From Micromonosporaceae bacterium (lineage in GTDB: Bacteria > Actinomycetota > Actinomycetes > Mycobacteriales > Micromonosporaceae), in NCBI GenBank assembly GCA_009377645.1, contig WHTQ01000003.1, positions 21,528 to 85,527 on the forward strand: DNA of 64,000 nt, written 5' to 3'. Of the stretch, positions 1,361-21,509 are shown one piece after another. The first letter of the stretch is position 1. Each line of letters starts with the position of its first letter. The translations under genes and the position numbers were made by a program. A model generated the notes under the pieces. The model was not told the origin of the DNA. It saw only the letters and a list, made by a program, of their open reading frames with translations, and ran no database searches.

Positions 1361-2107
1361 ATGGGCCGGCAACCGAAGAAGGAAGACCTGACCCGCGAGC
1401 GGCAGCGGGTCCGGCCGCGGGGCGGCGCGCCGGAGCTGCGGGCGGTCACTGCGGTGGTCAGCGCGATGCCGGAGATGTTCACCCCCGACCTGTCTCCCCG
1501 CCAGCGCCGGATCATGGAGTTCCTGCGCGACTGGGGCGAGCAGCATGGCTACCCCCCGAGCGTGCGGGAGATCGGCGAGGCGGTCGGCCTGGTGTCGCCG
1601 TCCAGCGTCGCCTACCAGCTCAAGGCGCTGGAGCGGAAGGGTTACCTGCGGCGCGACCCGAACCGTCCCCGGGCGGTCGACGTGCGCCCGGCCAGCGAGC
1701 TGGTCGAGGAGGAGGCCGACGTCCGCCGCCCCGCGCCGACCTACGTGCCGGTGCTGGGCAGCATCGCGGCCGGCGGGCCGATCCTCGCCGAGGAGATGAT
1801 CGAGGACGTCTTCCCGCTGCCCCGGGAGCTGGTCGGCGAAGGCACCCTGTTCCTGTTGCAGGTCAAGGGCGACTCGATGATCGACGCCGCGATCTGTGAC
1901 GGCGACTGGGTGGCGGTCCGGCAGCAGCCGGACGCGGAGAACGGCGAGATCGTGGCCGCGCTGATCGACGGCGAGGCGACCGTGAAGTCCTGCCAGCGCC
2001 GGGACGGGCACCTGTGGCTGCTCCCGCAGAACCCGGCGTTCGAGCCGATCCCCGGCGACCGGGCCACCATCATGGGCAAGGTGGTGGCGGTGATGCGCCG
2101 GGTCTGA
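1361..2107 (+). CDS. lexA: LexA SOS repressor
   Basis: Winged-helix N-terminus ([15 protein letters not shown]...[15 protein letters not shown]), then the Ala-Gly cleavage region ([10 protein letters not shown]) and an S24 peptidase domain (VKGDSM...ATVK). The start could be an internal Met. AGGAGGA lies 10 nt upstream of 1361. Confidence 0.9.
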
Positions 2108-2130
2108 GACCGGCTGCGGGGCCCCCGCGG

Positions 2131-3924
2131 TCAGCGGTCCCGCCCCCGAAACTCGTACGGGTAGTCCGGGTCGTCCGAGTAGTATCCCGGGTCGTTCGAG
2201 GAGTAATAGTCGGCCCCACCCGGCTGCTGTCCGGTGTGGCCGTTCGGCAAGTCCTGATGGTCGTAGCCGCCCTCCGGGCCGTACTGATGCCCTCCGGCGG
2301 ATCTGGTCTGGCCGTGGCCGGCCGGGCCATACTCGGCCGGGCCATACTCGGCCGGCCCGTACCCGGCCTGCCCGCCGCGCTCGACCGGCCCGTAGTCGGT
2401 GCCGCCGTATCCCGGGTCGCGGTAGTTCGCCCCGCCGTACCCGCCCTGGTCGTACCCGCCGGCCGGATACCCGGTGCCGTCTGGCTCCGGGCCGCCGTAA
2501 CCGTCCGGATAGCCGCCGCCCCCGCCGTACTCCGTCCCCCGGTACTCCCCGCCGGGTGCCCGGGCGGCGCTGGACGTGTACACCCCCGGCGGAGGGCTGG
2601 CCGGCTGGTCGGGTCCGGCCCCGGGCGGCCCGGGCGGTGGCCCCGGCGGGCCCGGCGGCCCCGGGTGCCCGGGCGGCGCGAACCCCGGCAGCCGGGCACG
2701 CCCGGTCACCGGGGCGTTCTCGGCGGCCGCGGCACCGGCACCGCCGGCCGGCCGGGGGGTGCCGCCCGGCCCGCCGCGACGGGCCCGGATGATCCCGAAC
2801 ACGCCGGCCCCCACCAGCACCAGCCCGATGACGCCGACCGCCGCGATCACGTTGATGAAGTCCTGCAAGTCGTTGAACAGCCCACCCCCGCCCCCACCGC
2901 CGGCGGCCGGCGGCGCCTCGGTAGCGGTGGGCTCCGGCTCCGGTGCCGCCACCGGGGCGTAGCTCAGCAGGAGCGGGGTGTAGCCGGTGTCGTCCTCCTC
3001 CGGCACCTCCGAGACGGTCAGGAACTGCTGCCCCTCCGGTAGGTACGTGATCGCCTCGCCCTGCGGCTCGTCCGGCAGCGGCGTGATCCGGGGCTCCGCG
3101 GTGGTGAGGGCCCCGACCACGTCGCCGTCGGCCACGTCGAACTCGAACGCGTCGGTGTAGCTGCGCAGCACCACCGCGCTGCCGTCCGGAGCGTTCGCCC
3201 CTCCGGTGATCAGCTGCCGGGCGACCGCCCCGAGCCGGTGCTGGACCTCGGTCTCCGGCTCCGGCAGGCTCACCTCGCCGACCGCCTCCAGCGGCACCGT
3301 GTCATCCGGTCCGCTACTTGGGCGCAGCTCACCCGGCACGAACAGTTCGGCGACGCCGATCGTCCTGGTGACGATGATCGGCGTGCCCTCGCCGTCGAGC
3401 AGCAGCGCCTCGGCGTCGCGAGGACCGTCCGGGTAGCTGAACCGGTGGATCACCGGGGTGCGGTCGCCATCCAGGTCGATCCGCCACAGCGCCGCGCTGG
3501 GCCGGGGCTCCTGGCCGGTGAGCTCGAAGTTGTCGCCGGTGTCGCCGACCCACAGCACGTTGCTCTCCCGGTCCCAGGCCAGGTCCTCCGGGTCCAGCGG
3601 CGGGCTGGGGTAGCCAATCTGGTCGGTCACCTGGCAGCCCTGGTCCAGCAGGAAGACCCCCACCCGGTCAGCGCTCAGGGAGCTGTCGTTGACGACCGCG
3701 TAGCCGTCCTCAAAGGCCACCAGGCCGGACAGCTCGACCAGCCGCGAGTCGGTGACCGCGCACACCTCTTCGCCCGGCACCGCCTCCGGCGGGGCCGCCT
3801 CCGGAGTGGGGCTGGGCTGGGCGGCGGCGGCGCTCCCGGCGCCGGCCGCCCCGACCGCCGGCACGGCGACCAGCCACGCCACGGCCACCGCCGCCACCGT
3901 GAACCGCGTACTCAACCGACGCAT
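2131..3924 (-). CDS. Hypothetical single-pass membrane protein: signal peptide, ~330-aa extracytoplasmic domain, TM helix, Pro/Gly/Tyr-rich cytoplasmic tail
   Basis: ORF 2131..3981, with the start placed at MRRLSTRFTVAAVAVAWLVAV. The TM segment is VIAAVGVIGLVLVGAGVFGII. The tail carries GYGG and EYGPA repeats, encoded by a 15-bp tandem repeat near 2300-2350. Confidence 0.6.
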   Translation of the reverse strand: MRRLSTRFTVAAVAVAWLVAVPAVGAAGAGSAAAAQPSPTPEAAPPEAVPGEEVCAVTDSRLVELSGLVAFEDGYAVVNDSSLSADRVGVFLLDQGCQVTDQIGYPSPPLDPEDLAWDRESNVLWVGDTGDNFELTGQEPRPSAALWRIDLDGDRTPVIHRFSYPDGPRDAEALLLDGEGTPIIVTRTIGVAELFVPGELRPSSGPDDTVPLEAVGEVSLPEPETEVQHRLGAVARQLITGGANAPDGSAVVLRSYTDAFEFDVADGDVVGALTTAEPRITPLPDEPQGEAITYLPEGQQFLTVSEVPEEDDTGYTPLLLSYAPVAAPEPEPTATEAPPAAGGGGGGGLFNDLQDFINVIAAVGVIGLVLVGAGVFGIIRARRGGPGGTPRPAGGAGAAAAENAPVTGRARLPGFAPPGHPGPPGPPGPPPGPPGAGPDQPASPPPGVYTSSAARAPGGEYRGTEYGGGGGYPDGYGGPEPDGTGYPAGGYDQGGYGGANYRDPGYGGTDYGPVERGGQAGYGPAEYGPAEYGPAGHGQTRSAGGHQYGPEGGYDHQDLPNGHTGQQPGGADYYSSNDPGYYSDDPDYPYEFRGRDR

Positions 3925-4061
3925 CGGGTCAGTTTCGCACGCCCGAAGTGGCCAGAGCCAGTACCGCTGCGTGGCTGGCACCGCCCCAACCAGCCCCGCG
4001 GCGGCCGGGCACGGCCCAATCAGGCAGCCGAGCCACCGGTCAGGGGCCGCCGGCCACCCGG

Positions 4062-15228: not shown

Positions 15229-15518
15229 GGCCGTCTCCCTCCACCCGTGGCGCGTGGTGACGCGCTGGTCAGTCGCGGGAGCCGCCGCCCGACCCGGACG
15301 GGCAACCGGGATAACGCCGCCCGGCCGGCGCACCGGCTGACCGGGCGTGGGTACACAACGCCGCCGTCGGCTGGGCTCAGCCGGCGACGGCTGTTCTGCC
15401 GCGGAGGATGTGTGCCGCGGCGCGCACTATCGGTAGCTAAGAAGTGTTGCCGTACTGTTACCTGTCTGATCTTGTGCGGTAAGCCCTGTTGTGGTCGGTC
15501 GTACTCCGTGTACTGGCG

Positions 15519-15547
15519 AGATTAAGCCGAGATAACGATTTGGTCAA
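15519..15547 (-). promoter_or_regulatory. Candidate sigma-70-type promoter for rny (TTGACC-N17-TAATCT)
   Basis: Minus strand: TTGACC (15547..15542), a 17-nt spacer, then TAATCT (15524..15519). It lies in a locally AT-rich tract just after the recX stop and implies a ~280-nt leader. Confidence 0.4.
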
Positions 15548-15552
15548 GAGGC

Positions 15553-16245
15553 CTATCGGCCGGCATCGGCTGGCTCGTCCGGACCGGTGGCGTCGGCCAA
15601 GGCGTCCGGACCGGTGGCGTCGGCCAGGGCGTCCGGGTCGAGCTGGTCGGCCACCGCGGCGGTGCGCTGGTCGGCGGCCAGCGCCTCCTTCACCACCCGG
15701 TAGGCCAGCCCGGCCGGGTAGCCCTTGCGCGCCAGCATCCCCACCAGCCGGCGCACGATCGCCTCGGGCGGGCCGGTGGCGGTACGCAGCCGCCGCTCGA
15801 CCAGCGCCCGGGCGGTCTCGGCCTCGGTCTCGTCGTCGAGCTGGCCGAGCGCCTCGCCGACCGCGTCCGCCGCCACACCGCGCTGGCGCAGCTCGCTGCC
15901 GAGCGCCCGGCGGGCCAGCCCGCGGCCCTGGTGCCGGCTGCTCACCCAGGCCCGCGCGAACGCCGCGTCGTCGATCAGGCCGACCTCGTCGTAGCGGTCG
16001 AGCACCTCAGCCGCTACCCGGTCGTCCACCCCCCGCCGGCGTAGCGCGGTGGCGAGGTCGGCCCGGGTGCGGGGCCGGACCGCGAGCTGCCGCAGGCAGA
16101 TCTCCCGGGCCAGCTCGGCCGGGTCGGGCGGGGGCGACTCGGCCGGGTTCGTGACTGGACCGGCCGGGCGGGCCGGGGCGCGCCGGGCCCGGGGCGGGGC
16201 GGCATCCCAGCCCCGCCCGGTGCGCCCGCGCCGCCGGCCCGCCAT
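15553..16245 (-). CDS. recX: RecA regulator RecX
   Basis: Three-helix repeat architecture (CLRQLAVRPRTRADLATALRRRGV..., AAFARAWVSSRH, LRQRGV...), immediately downstream of recA. Confidence 0.85.
   Translation of the reverse strand: MAGRRRGRTGRGWDAAPPRARRAPARPAGPVTNPAESPPPDPAELAREICLRQLAVRPRTRADLATALRRRGVDDRVAAEVLDRYDEVGLIDDAAFARAWVSSRHQGRGLARRALGSELRQRGVAADAVGEALGQLDDETEAETARALVERRLRTATGPPEAIVRRLVGMLARKGYPAGLAYRVVKEALAADQRTAAVADQLDPDALADATGPDALADATGPDEPADAGR
15577..15630. repeat. 27-bp in-frame tandem duplication in the recX 3' end
   Basis: GTCCGGACCGGTGGCGTCGGCCAAGGC x2 with one mismatch, plus a partial third copy. It encodes the repeated PDALADATG. Confidence 0.9.
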
Positions 16246-16263
16246 CGCCTCAGCCCGGCCCGG

Positions 16264-19200
16264 TCAGAAGTCCACCGGCGGGAGCTGCTGCCCGCCGGCC
16301 TCATCGCTGTTGGCCTGGCCCACGCCCAGCTTCTCCAGGATCTTCTTCTCGACCTCCGCGGCGACGTCCGGGTTGTCCCGCAGGAACGAGCGGACGTTCT
16401 CCTTGCCCTGCCCGAGCTGGTCCCCGTCGTAGGTGTACCAGGCGCCGGACTTGCGGACGATTCCCTGCTCGACCCCCACGTCGATGAGCGACCCCTCGCG
16501 CGAGATGCCCTTTCCGTAGAGAATGTCCATCTCGGCTTGCTTGAACGGGGCCGAAACCTTGTTCTTGACGACCTTCACCCTGGTCCGGTTGCCAACGACA
16601 TCCACCCCGTCCTTCAGGCCCTCGATCCGGCGGACATCCAGGCGGACCGACGAGTAGAACTTCAGCGCCCGCCCCCCACTGGTGGTCTCCGGGCTGTTAT
16701 GCACCATCACGCCGTCGACGAAGTAGCTGTGGTTGCCTTCGACCTCGATGTCGAACCGACGCATCGAGCGGGTCCTCGGCTTGACGTGGATGTCGAGAAT
16801 CTGTGCCGGCACTGGGCGCAGCTCCGTGTTCACGAACTCCGACTCCACGGCGCACCGGCCCCGGAACCCCGGCAGCAGCTTGTACTCCATGGCGGAGGGC
16901 ACATAGGGCGCCACGAGCTTCTGGAACCTGGTCGTAGCTGCGGTCGTGAACTGGAGGACCACCTTCTGCCTCTGCCCGCGCCGGGTCAGCTTGACATCGA
17001 GGTCGTGGGTGTCGCGCAGATACTGGACGAGGCGCTCGCGCGAGCCGGTGCTCATCGCTTCGACGCAGATATCGATCCGCCCGGTGCCGCCCCGGGTACG
17101 CTCCTGCACCCCCCTGGAGCGCACGGTGAAGCAGCCATCGTCCATATACCACACCGCGAGCGCCAGCGGCGTCAGTGCCTTGAGATAGTCCCAGCTGAGG
17201 TGCTTGCGCCCGTCGCCGAGGTAGACCGCCTGGCGCAGCTCGTTCAGCTCGGGCAGTGGCGTGAAGTCGGCGAAGGTCGCGCCCCTGGCGTTCGTGCTGA
17301 TGGTGTGGTCGATGTTTCCCAGCAGCGAGACTTTCCAGTCCAGATAGGGGACTTGCGCGGCACCGTGGCCCATCCGGAAGCGAACCCCGGACCGGCCATG
17401 GGGGTTGGGTGAGATGGCGCCGTCACCCATGAGCGAGCCGAGGATGACTTGCCACTGCTGGTCGCTGAGCCGTCGCGGCTCGGCCAGCATCACCCGATCG
17501 CCGGCGATCAGCTCCCCTGCCTCCCGCCAGCCTCCGGGCGTTCGGACGAGGTGGTTGGCGGTTGCGGCGAACTGTGCCCTGCCGTTGCCGCCGGCCTTCG
17601 CCACCGTGAACTGCAGGAACCGGTCGGCGTTGCCGTTGTCGAACCAGTTGACGATCGGCCGGGGCTCGATCCGGTCCGTCTCCGGGTTGTACGACAGGAC
17701 CTCGACCGCCATTCGCTGGTTGACGATCTTGCCAATCTTCTCCTGACTACCGTCTGCTAGTGTGACCCGCGTGCTGTAAGACATGCACCCGAACATCACA
17801 CCGATCTTCTCCCGGAGTTGGTTGATGAAGATCGCGGTGGTGCCTGAGTTGTTCAGGGCGCCGGTGATCTTCCGCAGCGCTTGGCTCATCAGCCGTGCCT
17901 GCAGGCCGACGTGGGCGTCCCCCATCTCGCCCTCGATCTCGGCGCGCGGCACCAGCGCGGCCACCGAGTCGATGACGATGACGTCCAGCGCACCGGACCG
18001 GACCAGCATGTCCGCGATCTCCAGCGCCTGCTCGCCGGTGTCCGGTTGCGAGACCAGCAGTGCGTCGGTGTCCACCCCGATCGCCTTCGCGTACTCCGGG
18101 TCCAGCGCGTGCTCGGCATCGATGAACGCCGCAATGCCGCCGCTCTTCTGAGCGCTGGCCACCGCGTGCAACGCCAGGGTGGTGTTGTGGGAGAGGATCC
18201 CGTTGGCCAGGAAGCTGTGGGTCTGCGGCACCATCACGTCGAAGGTGGGCTGCTTTCCCACGTCCTCGACGGCGACGACCTCTTCATACGTGTACTCCTG
18301 GGTGGCGAGTGACCGCAGGTGCATGAGGATGCACCGCCCAGAGACCGACAGCGCTCCTAGCCGCCTCTCCCCCCATTCCACGATCTTCGCGAGCCGGGCC
18401 CGGGAGCACGCCAGGTTGAGGTCGGAGCGGAAGAGGTCACCTGCGATCCGGTCGAACTCCCGATCTCCCCCGCAGTCGTCCCGCAGATCCCGGATCAGGT
18501 CCGCCAGGTGCGGGATGTTCTCGAACCGGGCATCGAACCGGCTGCGCCGGAAGTTTCGGTCGACCTGCGCCCGGCGGCGCGCCGACCGGAACCCGACCTC
18601 ATCCAGGAAGCGATGGGCGACGGCCTGGTTTATGGCGACGCTCCAGTAGTAGCGCTGGTAGTCCTCGTTCCACTTCGAAGCGACCGTTACCGGCAGGCCC
18701 AAGCCGTACAACATGAGCTGGACCTCGCGTGCAAGCTGCTCGGAGGCGGTGCCCAGACCGATCTTCGAGCTGGGGTCGATCCACCCGTCGCCCTCGAACA
18801 GTGCCGACAGGAACGCCCGCTGCGCCTTGTGCCCGGCCGTACGCACCCGATAGGGCACCGTCTTGCCGTGCGCGGTCACGTAGTCGAGCCCATACTCGGT
18901 CGCGAACCGCTCCCGGAGCCGCACGCTGTGAACGGCAAACTCCTTGTTGTCGTAGTTACGGACGTCCACCCCAAACAGCTGCTCCATCAAGCGGCAGTAC
19001 TCGCCGCTGACTTCCGGATCCCAGTTGGTGAAGCGGACGGCCGTCTTCGACGACAGCGAGCCCTCGGCGACGAGGTAACCCAGCAGCACCGCCTCGTCCT
19101 CGGAGAGGCCGTCGCCGGCCGCCGCTTCCACCGCACCGAACCGGGCGGAGACGACGAAGTCACCGGGTCGGATCTCACCCACCGTGCGCCAGGCGATGTG

Positions 19201-19692
19201 ACCGCGCTCGGTCATCACCCGCAGCGGGTGGTTGCTGGTCGCGGTGACCGTGCGTCCGGAGCGGAGCGTCAGCCTGGTCACGGGCTTGCGGTTGTTGTGG
19301 GTCAGCGCGGCGACCGGCTCCAGCTCTCCCCGCTCGTTCACCACCCGAACCCCGAGCTCAGAGACATCGGTGATCCGGCTGGTGCAACTCGCCGGCTGGC
19401 CGCACCGTGCGAACAGCTCCGCCACCGTCTCCAGACCACGATCTGTCCACAGATAGCTATCCGCTGTTAGGCACTTTCCCCCAGCCTCAGGTCCGTATAT
19501 CTCCACCACCCGGCCGCGCGGCAGGCCGCCCACCCCGAGGGCGATGTCGAGCGCGATCGAGCCGGTGGGGATCACCCGCATCTGCACCGCCGGCCGCTCG
19601 CCCAGCCGCATGATGGAGCCCTTGCCGTACTGCTTGTCGATCTGCGCCAGCGCGAGCTCTAGCGCCTTCTCCTTGTCGGGCACTGCTGCCAT
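16264..19692 (-). CDS. recA: RecA recombinase precursor interrupted by two inteins (spliced product ~348 aa from Met 19692, or 366 aa from GTG 19746)
   Basis: The exteins are colinear with RecA: [25 protein letters not shown]...GPEAGGK | [12 protein letters not shown]...[12 protein letters not shown] | [23 protein letters not shown].... The ATG at 19692 follows GGAGCAGGAGCGG and gives a canonical N-terminus. Confidence 0.95.
16696..17787 (-). mobile_element. Intein 2 (364 aa) with LAGLIDADG homing-endonuclease domain, at the GVMFG|SPETT (RecA-b type) site
   Basis: Cys1 ([14 protein letters not shown]), block [19 protein letters not shown] motifs [11 protein letters not shown] and [12 protein letters not shown]-terminal [10 protein letters not shown], and Ser at +1. 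As far as I remember it, it closely resembles the M. leprae RecA intein. Confidence 0.92.
18184..19473 (-). mobile_element. Intein 1 (430 aa) with LAGLIDADG homing-endonuclease domain, inserted in the RecA Walker A loop between Lys and Thr
   Basis: Cys1 (CLTADSYLW), block [19 protein letters not shown] motifs [11 protein letters not shown] and [13 protein letters not shown]-terminal [10 protein letters not shown], and Thr at +1. The codons were checked in the sequence (TGC at 19473..19471, AAC at 18186..18184). Confidence 0.9.
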
Positions 19693-19752
19693 GGTCGCCG
19701 CTCCTGCTCCTGCCGCACTCTTGGTCGTCGTCGGTTTCTTCGCCACGCGGAC

Positions 19753-19775
19753 ACGGTAGGCGCCCGGTCCGACAA
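19753..19775 (-). promoter_or_regulatory. Candidate RecA/LexA-independent DNA-damage promoter (RecA-NDp / PafBC-type) proximal to recA
   Basis: Minus strand TTGTCGGAC-N8-TACCGT fits tTGTCRgtg-N8-TAnnnT. Its position argues that the GTG at 19746 is not the start codon. Confidence 0.4.
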
Positions 19776-19828
19776 ACGACAGCCGGCGTGCCGCCGCCTG
19801 TGGATAAGCACCGCCCTGTGGACAATAG

Positions 19829-19844
19829 CCGAACGCGCGTACGA
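19829..19844 (-). promoter_or_regulatory. LexA (SOS) box upstream of recA, adjacent to a TATTGT -10 element
   Basis: Minus strand TCGTACGCGCGTTCGG, with TATTGT at 19827..19822. Compare the consensus TCGAAC-N4-GTTCGA. Confidence 0.6.
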
Positions 19845-19882
19845 GAAGGGGGCGACGCGCCGGAGACCTGAACCCGGCTCAG

Positions 19883-19960
19883 TGCCGCCGGTTCGCTCCA
19901 GCGCTCACTGCCGCCGGTTCGCTCCAGCGCTCACTGCCGCCGGTTCGCTCCAGCGCTCAC
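19883..19960. repeat. 26-bp perfect tandem repeat x3 spanning the DUF3046 stop codon, upstream of the recA promoters
   Basis: The unit TGCCGCCGGTTCGCTCCAGCGCTCAC starts at 19883, 19909 and 19935. A diverged partial copy follows inside the gene end. On the minus strand each unit starts with TGA. Confidence 0.95.
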
Positions 19961-20157
19961 TGCAGCCGGGCCGGCACCCGGTCCGGGTAGGCGGCGACCA
20001 CCGCCTGCCAGACCTTCCTGGTGGCTACCCCGGCGGCCAGCGCCTCGGTGATGGTCCGGCCGCCCAGCTGCGACAGGACCTGGTCCCGGGCCACGCTGGC
20101 GGCGTACCCCGGACCGAAGACCTGCTCCAGCCGGGCCCAGAAGTCGGTGCTCCTCAC
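19957..20157 (-). CDS. DUF3046 domain-containing protein (conserved recA-upstream gene, Rv2738c-like)
   Basis: 66 aa, TDFWARLEQVFGPGYAASVARDQVLSQLGGRT. The GTG start overlaps the MFS stop (GTGA). Confidence 0.8.
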   Translation of the reverse strand: MRSTDFWARLEQVFGPGYAASVARDQVLSQLGGRTITEALAAGVATRKVWQAVVAAYPDRVPARLQ

Positions 20158-21509
20158 GCGTACACCCTTTCACGCACCGGCCGGAGCGCCAGCGCCACCA
20201 GCGGCACGGTCGCGACCGCGGCCAGCAGGTTCAGCGTCGGGTAGCCGCTCCACGACACGACCAGCCCGGACACCGCCCCGGCCGACGCCCCGGCCAGGCC
20301 CATCACCAGGTCGGACAGGCCCTGCGCGGACGGGCGCACCGGCTCCGGCACCGACTCGCTCAGCAGCGTGGAGCCGGCCACCATGGTGGCCGACCAGCCC
20401 AGCCCGAGCAGGAACAGCCCGATCGAGAGCTGCCCCGAGTGGTGCCCGGCGGTGCCGGCGACCGCGCACGCCGCCAGCAGCAGCGCCACCCCTCCCAGGA
20501 TCACCGGACGCCGGCCGAGCCGGTCGGTGAGCCAGCCGGTGACCAGCGCGAACGCGAACATCCCGGCGATGTGGAGGCTGAGCACCACCCCCACGATCCG
20601 CAGGGTGTGCGCCGCGTCGTGCCCGGCACCGAGGATGTGCACTGGGGTCATCGCCATCACCCCGACCATCACCACGTGGCCGACCGCCATCGCGGCCACC
20701 CCGAGCCGGGCCGCCGGCCGGGCGGCCACCGCCGCCAGCCCCGCCCGCATCCCGAGCCGGCGCTGGTCGCCGGGCTCCGGTGCGCCCGCCCGCCCGCGCG
20801 CCACCAGCAGCGGGTCCGGCCGCAGCAGCAGCCCCAGCACCAGCGCCGCCGCCCCGAACAGCACGATCGAGAAAGCGAACGGCGCGGCCAGGGTCGGCAC
20901 GTCCCGGCCACCCAGCCGGATCCCGCCCAGCGCGGTGCCGGCCAGCGGCGCCAGGTTCGGCCCGGCGACCGCGCCGACCGTGGTCGCCCAGACCACCAGT
21001 GACAGGTGCTGTCCGCGCCGGGCCGCCGGGGCCAGGTCGACGGCGGCGTAGCGGGCCTGCATGTTGGCGGTGGTGCCGCCCCCGAACAGGAACAGCCCGG
21101 CGAACAGCAGCGGCACCGAGCCGAGCACCGCCGCGGCGACCACGCCGAGACCGCCCAGCGCGGCGGCCGCGTACGCGGCGAGCATGCCCGGCCGCCGCCC
21201 GTACTGCCGCATGATCCGCACCACCGGCACCGCCAGCAGCGCCGAGCCGACCACCGCCGCGCTCTGCGCCACTCCGGACAGGCTGACCCCGGCCATGTCG
21301 GCGGCCAGCAGTGCGCCCACCGCCAGCCCGATCGCCACCCCCACCCCGCCCACCACCTGGGTGGAGAACAGCAGCGCCAGGGTGCGCCGCTGCACCCTGG
21401 CCAGGTCGTACGCGGGCACGGTGGGCTCAGGCGGGGCGGGCGCCACGGTCGGCTCGACAGCCACCGGGCAGCTCCCTTCGATCCGGGGCACGGCAGTGCC
21501 TCCCATCAT
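20154..21509 (-). CDS. MFS transporter
   Basis: About 12 predicted TM helices and an MFS loop motif (DRLGRRP). The start was moved to the Met at 21509, because the ORF Met at 21614 would leave 5 bp to the divergent cellulase gene. Confidence 0.8.
   Translation of the reverse strand: MMGGTAVPRIEGSCPVAVEPTVAPAPPEPTVPAYDLARVQRRTLALLFSTQVVGGVGVAIGLAVGALLAADMAGVSLSGVAQSAAVVGSALLAVPVVRIMRQYGRRPGMLAAYAAAALGGLGVVAAAVLGSVPLLFAGLFLFGGGTTANMQARYAAVDLAPAARRGQHLSLVVWATTVGAVAGPNLAPLAGTALGGIRLGGRDVPTLAAPFAFSIVLFGAAALVLGLLLRPDPLLVARGRAGAPEPGDQRRLGMRAGLAAVAARPAARLGVAAMAVGHVVMVGVMAMTPVHILGAGHDAAHTLRIVGVVLSLHIAGMFAFALVTGWLTDRLGRRPVILGGVALLLAACAVAGTAGHHSGQLSIGLFLLGLGWSATMVAGSTLLSESVPEPVRPSAQGLSDLVMGLAGASAGAVSGLVVSWSGYPTLNLLAAVATVPLVALALRPVRERVYA

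Follow-up and report, generated by a model that had tools for sequence, protein, structure and literature searches.

A recA gene of a Micromonosporaceae bacterium with two predicted inteins, in the P-loop and in the DNA-binding loop region

Architecture of the recA gene

The 64,000-nucleotide stretch of DNA analysed here (the window) contains, on its minus strand, a recA gene whose open reading frame (ORF) encodes RecA in three parts, separated by two large in-frame inserts. The gene is very probably the chromosomal recA of the Micromonosporaceae bacterium from which the window derives, invaded by two independent mobile inteins. Its parts are listed below; amino acid (aa) positions follow the 1160-aa numbering, unless the 1142-aa or the spliced protein is named.

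16264..19746, minus strand: recA precursor ORF in its longest reading, with a GTG start and 1160 codons plus stop (ORF list)
16264-19692, minus strand: probable recA coding sequence, with an ATG start, 1142 aa
19474..19746, minus strand: N-extein, aa 1-91, with the Walker A motif GPEAGGK at its end
18184..19473, minus strand: intein 1, aa 92-521 (430 aa), CLTADS...ILSHN, followed by TT
17788..18183, minus strand: middle extein, aa 522-653, the RecA ATPase core, TTLALHAV...REKIGVMFG
16696..17787, minus strand: intein 2, aa 654-1017 (364 aa), CMSYST...VMVHN, followed by SPET
16264..16695, minus strand: C-extein, aa 1018-1160 plus stop, SPETTSGG..., with the C-terminal domain of RecA

The two inserts, of 430 and 364 aa in a single 1160-codon ORF, had been described in an earlier sequence-only reading of this DNA, with coordinates and sequences that proved exact. 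Together they occupy 794 of the 1160 codons (68%), in agreement with its estimate that about two thirds of the ORF is intein. When they are removed, the joined exteins form a protein of 366 aa from the GTG, or of 348 aa from the ATG at 19692, in which the Walker A motif is restored as GPEAGGKTT. This protein aligns as a single stretch with RecA of M. smegmatis (PDB 1ubc; residues 22-366 against 5-349, E 5.4e-182), as the predicted colinear RecA of 348-366 aa should, and comparison with PDB sequences shows it to be equally colinear with the E. coli and M. tuberculosis proteins.

Profile searches with the intact ORF lead to the same family. Pfam finds RecA in three stretches (E 1.5e-126), together with RecA_C, and the NCBIfam model for RecA, TIGR02012, scores 513.9 bits against a cut-off of 325.3. 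The RecA reading frame is uninterrupted over 3.4 kb. Neither a second recA nor a further related intein was found in the 64,000 nucleotides of the window.

The Walker A motif itself is unusual, reading GPEAGGK(T) (aa 85-91, nucleotides 19474-19494) in place of the usual GPESSGK(T). The variant is common to the closest relative (protein P0118, contig L081), and all other homologues read have GPESSGK.

The two inteins

Both inserts are, with high probability, canonical class-1 inteins, in which a HINT splicing domain holds a nested double-motif LAGLIDADG homing endonuclease. The NCBIfam models intein_Nterm (TIGR01445) and intein_Cterm (TIGR01443) and the Pfam family PF14890 each match two stretches of the ORF. 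Each intein has two LAGLIDADG helices, and each helix ends in an acidic residue and a Gly. The short motifs, located by motif reading, are as follows.

19225-19245, minus strand: intein 1, block B, TSNH, aa 170-173
19057-19086, minus strand: intein 1, LAGLIDADG motif LLGYLVAEG
18781-18813, minus strand: intein 1, LAGLIDADG motif (S)ALFEGDG
17545-17565, minus strand: intein 2, block B, TANH, aa 729-732
17416-17445, minus strand: intein 2, LAGLIDADG motif LGSLMGDG
17131-17160, minus strand: intein 2, LAGLIDADG motif (A)VWYMDDG

Intein 1 is inserted between the Lys and the Thr of the Walker A P-loop (GPEAGGK/TT). It contains Cys1, the TxxH of block B, block F, the terminal His-Asn and a +1 Thr (SHN/T), and is matched in Pfam by Intein_splicing (PF14890) and LAGLIDADG_3 (PF14528, aa 309-385, E 3.9e-17). 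Among PDB sequences it matches PI-PkoII, the Mxe GyrA intein, VMA inteins and DnaB inteins. An AlphaFold2 model of intein 1 has a predicted local distance difference test score (pLDDT) of 87.7 and a predicted template modelling score (pTM) of 0.86. Its best fold match is the TliVMA intein (7qss, template modelling (TM) score 0.73); it also superposes on whole endonuclease-bearing inteins, namely PI-PfuI, PI-TkoII and PI-SceI, with 1dq3 among the matches, and its central domain superposes on I-DmoI (TMt ~0.7).

Intein 2 splits GVMFG/SPET, between Gly205 and Ser206 of the spliced 348-aa protein. Cys1, the TxxH of block B, block F, the terminal His-Asn and a +1 Ser (VHN/S) are all present. The Pfam family LAGLIDADG_2 (PF03161) covers aa 765-941 with its full profile (1-168 of 168, E 8.3e-39), and the best stretch for TIGR01445 in the whole ORF is aa 654-736, at the start of this intein. 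Intein 2 can be aligned in both its N- and its C-terminal splicing region with PI-MtuI, the RecA intein of M. tuberculosis (E 2e-13, PDB sequences). Thus the Cys1, TxxH, terminal HN, +1 Thr or Ser and pair of LAGLIDADG motifs that the sequence-only reading had ascribed to each insert were all located, and the splicing and LAGLIDADG domains expected from them were recovered by Pfam and NCBIfam profiles in both inserts.

A further cysteine of intein 1, Cys30 (motif asCTSR, nucleotides 19384-19386), shows a conservation of at least 90% across 111 homologues and might serve the catalytic Cys1 as its partner in a disulfide or in metal binding.

A search of phage sequences returned full-length homologues of intein 1, at 34% identity, in T5-like Escherichia and Klebsiella phages (OV696614.1, Escherichia phage Cyrano; PV340561.1; PQ492289.1). 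The matched stretch is annotated as RecA only in OV696614.1; in PV340561.1 it is a hypothetical protein, and PQ492289.1 is unannotated. The 'E. coli RecA c2 inteins' of the literature may, judging from these sequences, be phage-related. For the two inteins together, no homologue in the phage search reached 35% identity; the matches lie in RecA of T5-like coliphages, in Enterococcus phage helicases and in phage RNA ligases, so no phage source, and hence no recent phage vector of either intein, is evident from it.

Insertion sites and distribution

Five intein insertion points, a-e, have been defined in the RadA/RecA proteins (Topilina et al. 2015, Nucleic Acids Research, PMC4513877). Site a is that of M. 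tuberculosis RecA (252-691), and site b is that of M. leprae RecA (206-570) and of many actinobacteria, including Verrucosispora maris (206-569). Site c, the P-loop, goes by the name c1 for archaeal RadA and c2 for bacterial RecA, and d and e are two additional points. RecA proteins with an intein at b only are listed in the same paper, and its Table 1 records inteins at both b (650-1006) and c2 (96-517) of Thermobifida fusca YX RecA (Q47RS6).

On this scheme the window recA is occupied at c2 and b. Intein 2 lies after residue 205 (FG/SPET), and its size falls within the range of about 355-367 aa that goes with site b; it corresponds to aa 636-999 of the 1142-aa protein, which becomes 206-569 when the 430-aa intein 1 is subtracted. 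Site a is empty, with the sequence VKVVKNK/VSAPFKQ (16537-16578, minus strand) uninterrupted in the C-extein.

The distribution of this layout was examined at the level of proteins and of genomes. The whole ORF was searched against a collection of 5.8 billion proteins, and the best 120 clusters (90% identity) were classified by their flanking extein motifs. At least 110 of these 120 carry inteins at both c and b, five carry them at c, b and a, and one has c only (P0118, 89% identical). Named sources of the c+b layout include Micromonospora lutea, M. craniellae, Nocardiopsis lucentensis and Spiractinospora alimapuensis; metagenome-assembled genomes (MAGs) with c+b come from Intrasporangium, Pseudonocardia and Euzebyales. 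One protein, P0001, is 100% identical to the window protein, has 1142 aa and is entered at NCBI as 'MAG: intein-containing recombinase RecA [Micromonosporaceae bacterium]'.

In the second survey, one genome per GTDB species (185,579 in all) was scanned with an alignment of the P-loop intein. Relatives of this intein were found in 151 species genomes, and the best 80 were typed. Essentially all of the 80 are Actinomycetota, the exception being a 2-kb contig binned as Gemmatimonadales. About 38 have c+b, four of them with a as well; two have c+a and lack b (L009, L020), and at least 27 have c alone. The modal lengths among homologues are 430 aa at c and 364 aa at b, and the window inteins match both.

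Triple-intein recA genes (c+b+a) occur in some Actinomycetota (P0012, P0023, P0036, P0075 and P0066; loci L010, L038 and L075), with precursors of ~1500-1640 aa. The third intein is M. tuberculosis-like (CLAEGTR...VVVHN/CAPPF, after VKVVKNK). In Micromonospora sediminimaris NBRC 107745 (L002), c and a are occupied and a merely 154-aa insert stands at b. A literature search with 'three inteins' and RecA turned up no description of a triple-intein RecA, which is not proof that none exists.

These counts bear on two questions. The first is the rarity that the sequence-only reading had claimed for two full-size inteins in one recA, a claim that is overstated, as is the novelty it implies: the T. 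fusca YX protein was published in 2015, and at least 110 of the best 120 clusters share the layout. A double-intein RecA of c2+b type has thus been in print since at least 2015, and the window protein is already annotated as intein-containing. The identification as a double-intein recA is correct and carries little weight as a discovery. Among bacteria overall the c+b layout is infrequent, yet it forms a well-populated, described class.

The second question is whether the inserts might be an artefact of assembling or binning a MAG, a suspicion for which the MAG origin of the identical protein P0001 could be cited. Against it, the inserts lie in frame at exact codon boundaries, and their GC content at third codon positions (GC3, 0.87-0.88) is in line with that of the exteins (0.85-0.93). 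The same layout is present in isolate genomes, among them those of Micromonospora lutea NBRC 106530, M. craniellae (on a 6.84-Mb contig), Nocardiopsis lucentensis DSM 44048, Fodinibacter luteus and Ornithinimicrobium cavernae, and independent assemblies that have it number more than 100. On these grounds an artefact is effectively excluded, and was left with a negligible probability.

Conservation, selection and mobility

The residues required for splicing are strongly conserved. Cys1 is kept in all 111 site-c homologues and in 117 of the 118 at site b, and the terminal HN in 110 and 116, respectively; in the same sets, conservation is 90% or higher for the splicing residues (including TxxH) and for each of the four acidic residues of the LAGLIDADG motifs. 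In comparisons with relatives, the ratio of nonsynonymous to synonymous substitution rates (dN/dS, Nei-Gojobori) lies at 0.09-0.26 in both inteins, for splicing and endonuclease parts alike, and at 0.12-0.13 in the exteins, values that are rough since dS is near or above 1 and close to saturation for the more distant pairs.

The closest relative found is represented by two metagenome contigs from the Joint Genome Institute (JGI), L081 (recA at 1618-4005) and L082 (791-3178). Their recA has 91% extein nucleotide identity to that of the window and the same DUF3046-recA-recX synteny. The P-loop intein is present in both, and the b site is cleanly empty, its flanks agreeing with the window at 84 of 90 nucleotides; a comparison of recA alleles, which had been proposed as a way to find empty sites, did find one. 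Such a presence/absence polymorphism is expected of a homing element. The two inteins also appear to have moved separately: across homologues, identity to the window correlates poorly between exteins and intein c (r 0.36) and between intein c and intein b (r 0.33), as would be expected if their histories are separate. In GC and GC3 the inteins match the exteins, and no sign of a recent import from a compositionally different donor was seen in this comparison.

Several points weigh against the reading of the gene as one invaded by two independent mobile inteins. Besides the roughness of the dN/dS values, the endonuclease domains could be under purifying selection for a structural part that they play in folding, and not because homing continues. 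Splicing, endonuclease activity and inactivity of the precursor are predictions, based on the conserved residues together with existing knowledge of RecA and other inteins. Finally, the homology of intein 2 with the M. leprae intein, and of intein 1 with that of T. fusca, rests on insertion site, length and a published table.

On a rival reading, one or both inteins would have decayed to a non-splicing state, and recA would be non-functional or supply very little RecA. That inteins of this family do decay is seen from shortened inserts in relatives, such as the 154 aa at b in M. sediminimaris and variants of 356-387 aa at site c. In the window, on the other hand, the catalytic residues of both inteins are all intact, both are of full, modal length, the reading frame is open for the whole 3.4 kb, no second recA is present and the extein dN/dS indicates a strongly constrained RecA. 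Decay was therefore judged highly improbable.

Predicted splicing and its possible regulation

With two inteins taken to be competent, the following course of events is predicted from the conserved residues. One transcript would give one precursor of ~125 kDa. Self-excision of each intein would take four steps, the first being an N-S acyl shift at Cys1. Transesterification to the +1 Thr or Ser would come next, then cyclisation of the terminal Asn, in which the penultimate His assists, and lastly an O-N shift. Two such autocatalytic reactions, independent of each other, would thereby join the three exteins into a normal RecA of ~348 aa, with the P-loop and the GVMFG-SPET loop restored. Each intein is found alone in other genomes and so must be able to splice without the other. 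The two LAGLIDADG endonucleases would be freed in the process, and could cut intein-less recA alleles, into which the inteins would then be copied.

Splitting the Walker A motif and the DNA-binding loop region should inactivate RecA. The precursor and both half-spliced forms would accordingly be expected to remain inactive while the P-loop and the GVMFG/SPET DNA-binding loop region are split. In this narrow sense, which follows from the positions of the insertion sites, the earlier proposal that RecA activity, and hence LexA cleavage, needs two splicing events can be upheld. The inteins themselves are best seen as selfish elements that would be kept at sites the host cannot change.

A broader version of the same idea is that the two inteins have been co-opted as conditional splicing switches, each responding to a different signal (redox state, metals, single-stranded DNA (ssDNA) or DNA damage), and gating RecA, LexA and the SOS response post-translationally by two inputs; this corresponds to the possible post-translational checkpoint of the sequence-only reading. 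The insertion sites are indeed functionally critical, both inteins are under purifying selection in many lineages, and Cys30 of intein 1 could in principle pair with Cys1. There are also precedents: the Pyrococcus horikoshii (Pho) RadA intein occupies the same P-loop point, and its splicing is controlled by temperature and ssDNA; splicing of the M. tuberculosis (Mtb) RecA intein inside its natural host is enhanced by DNA damage and, under hypoxia, by copper; and the two inteins of M. smegmatis DnaB differ in splicing rate and stress response, according to Kelley et al. 2018 (PMC6195587). However, no conditionality is visible in the sequence, and conserved sites with purifying selection are expected of any homing intein. 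The close relative L081 lacks intein 2, and many species have one intein or other combinations, a patchy pattern more in keeping with sporadic selfish elements than with a fixed device of regulation. Co-option of this kind is considered unlikely. The checkpoint idea is plausible as such and not new; it had earlier been put forward, and put to the test, with the inteins of Pho RadA and Mtb RecA.

A more elaborate form, and a slightly less probable one, would make the P-loop and b inteins differently tuned splicing sensors (for example Cys1-Cys30 for redox or metals, and an ssDNA-stimulated b intein) that act as an AND gate on RecA, LexA and the SOS response in many Actinomycetota, with c, c+b, c+a and c+b+a as regulatory settings. 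Given how patchily the inteins occur in close relatives, selfish elements are the default interpretation.

The census of c, c+b, c+a and c+b+a types across Actinomycetota shows that multi-intein recA genes are far commoner than the single published case suggests, and so bears on the debate about inteins as selfish elements or regulators. The window locus and its relative with an empty b site offer a clean natural case for distinguishing independent from conditional splicing in the master regulator of the SOS response, and the L081 allele provides a naturally intein-free substrate on which homing or cleavage could be assayed.

Upstream region and genomic context

The elements upstream of recA, and the genes of the SOS circuit and of the immediate neighbourhood, are listed here.

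19829..19844, minus strand: SOS-box-like palindrome TCGTACGCGCGTTCGG, with 2 mismatches to TCGAAC-N4-GTTCGA (actinobacterial LexA box)
19753..19775, minus strand: RecA-NDp-like motif TTGTCGGAC-N8-TACCGT, by sequence reading, conserved in L081
19957..20157, minus strand: DUF3046 gene, immediately upstream of recA (Pfam PF11248, E 2e-25)
15553..16245, minus strand: recX, immediately downstream of recA (Pfam RecX_HTH1/2/3)
1448..2107, plus strand: lexA (Pfam LexA_DNA_bind and Peptidase_S24), with the ORF open from 1346 and the start codon not fixed

Two start codons are conceivable, a leaderless GTG at 19746 and an ATG at 19692 led by a Shine-Dalgarno sequence. The ATG has AGGAG 8 nucleotides upstream, aligns with other RecA N-termini and agrees with the 1142-aa product at NCBI; for these reasons it is probably the start. 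The 1160-codon ORF of the sequence-only reading therefore stands as the longest reading, whereas the precursor itself is probably 1142 aa long.

The palindrome at 19829-19844 may bind LexA, and is conserved in L081 as TCGTACGGGCGTTCGG. Its credibility comes from its position and this conservation and not from statistics: with up to 3 mismatches to TCGAAC-N4-GTTCGA there are 57 matches in the window against 21.6 expected, and the recA-proximal site is one of ~13 with two mismatches. A perfect GAAC-N4-GTTC has no match anywhere in the window. The SOS circuit that had been claimed for the window is thus borne out as regards lexA and recX; for the SOS boxes, what was found is the two-mismatch site near recA.

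The second element resembles tTGTCRgtg-N8-TAnnnT, the consensus of the RecA-NDp promoters, the LexA-independent DNA-damage promoters of actinobacteria. Its -10-like hexamer ends 7 nucleotides before the GTG at 19746. Together the two elements suggest the two-promoter layout known for M. tuberculosis recA. A sigma-70 promoter scan of 15400-20200 found nothing, and the sole terminator-like match in that interval was no better than shuffled sequences.

A 26-bp unit is repeated 3.6 times (19877-19969, 97% matches) in the interval that separates the stop codon of the DUF3046 gene from the promoter region of recA. The repeat is absent from L081, which points to a recent local expansion in the window. 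The neighbourhood as a whole reads: major facilitator superfamily (MFS) transporter, DUF3046, recA, recX, RNase Y.

Comparison with known systems

The nearest published counterpart is the RecA of T. fusca YX, which is likened to the window protein by site, size and published coordinates. The host protein, the two insertion points and their order are the same, both organisms are Actinobacteria, and the inteins are of similar size (422 and 357 aa, against 430 and 364 aa in the window). The two differ in that T. fusca is Nocardiopsaceae-related and the window comes from Micromonosporaceae, with the Walker A sequence GPEAGGKT.

At site b, the inteins of M. leprae and V. maris lie, like intein 2, at residue 206 of the spliced protein, and share with it a LAGLIDADG endonuclease, Cys1 and a +1 Ser. 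The intein of V. maris, itself a member of the Micromonosporaceae, equals intein 2 in both position and its length of 364 aa. Unlike the window protein, with its two inteins, the RecA of each of these species has the b intein only. PI-MtuI of M. tuberculosis is found in the same host gene and its splicing domain aligns with intein 2, but it sits at site a, which is empty in the window, and is followed by a +1 Cys.

At the P-loop, the P. horikoshii RadA intein (c1) and the enterobacterial RecA c2 inteins have an insertion point, GK/T, identical to that of intein 1, although c1 and c2 represent independent invasions according to the literature. Conditional splicing has been demonstrated for the Pho RadA intein and for no c2 intein.

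Finally, M. smegmatis DnaB, as described by Kelley et al. 2018 (PMC6195587), is likewise a RecA-fold ATPase of DNA metabolism with two inteins, one of which (DnaBi1) lies in the P-loop while the other (DnaBi2) is full-length. The host protein differs, and DnaBi1 is a class-3 mini-intein, whereas both inteins of the window are predicted to be of class 1 and to carry endonucleases. DnaB is a model for how two inteins in one precursor can splice differentially.

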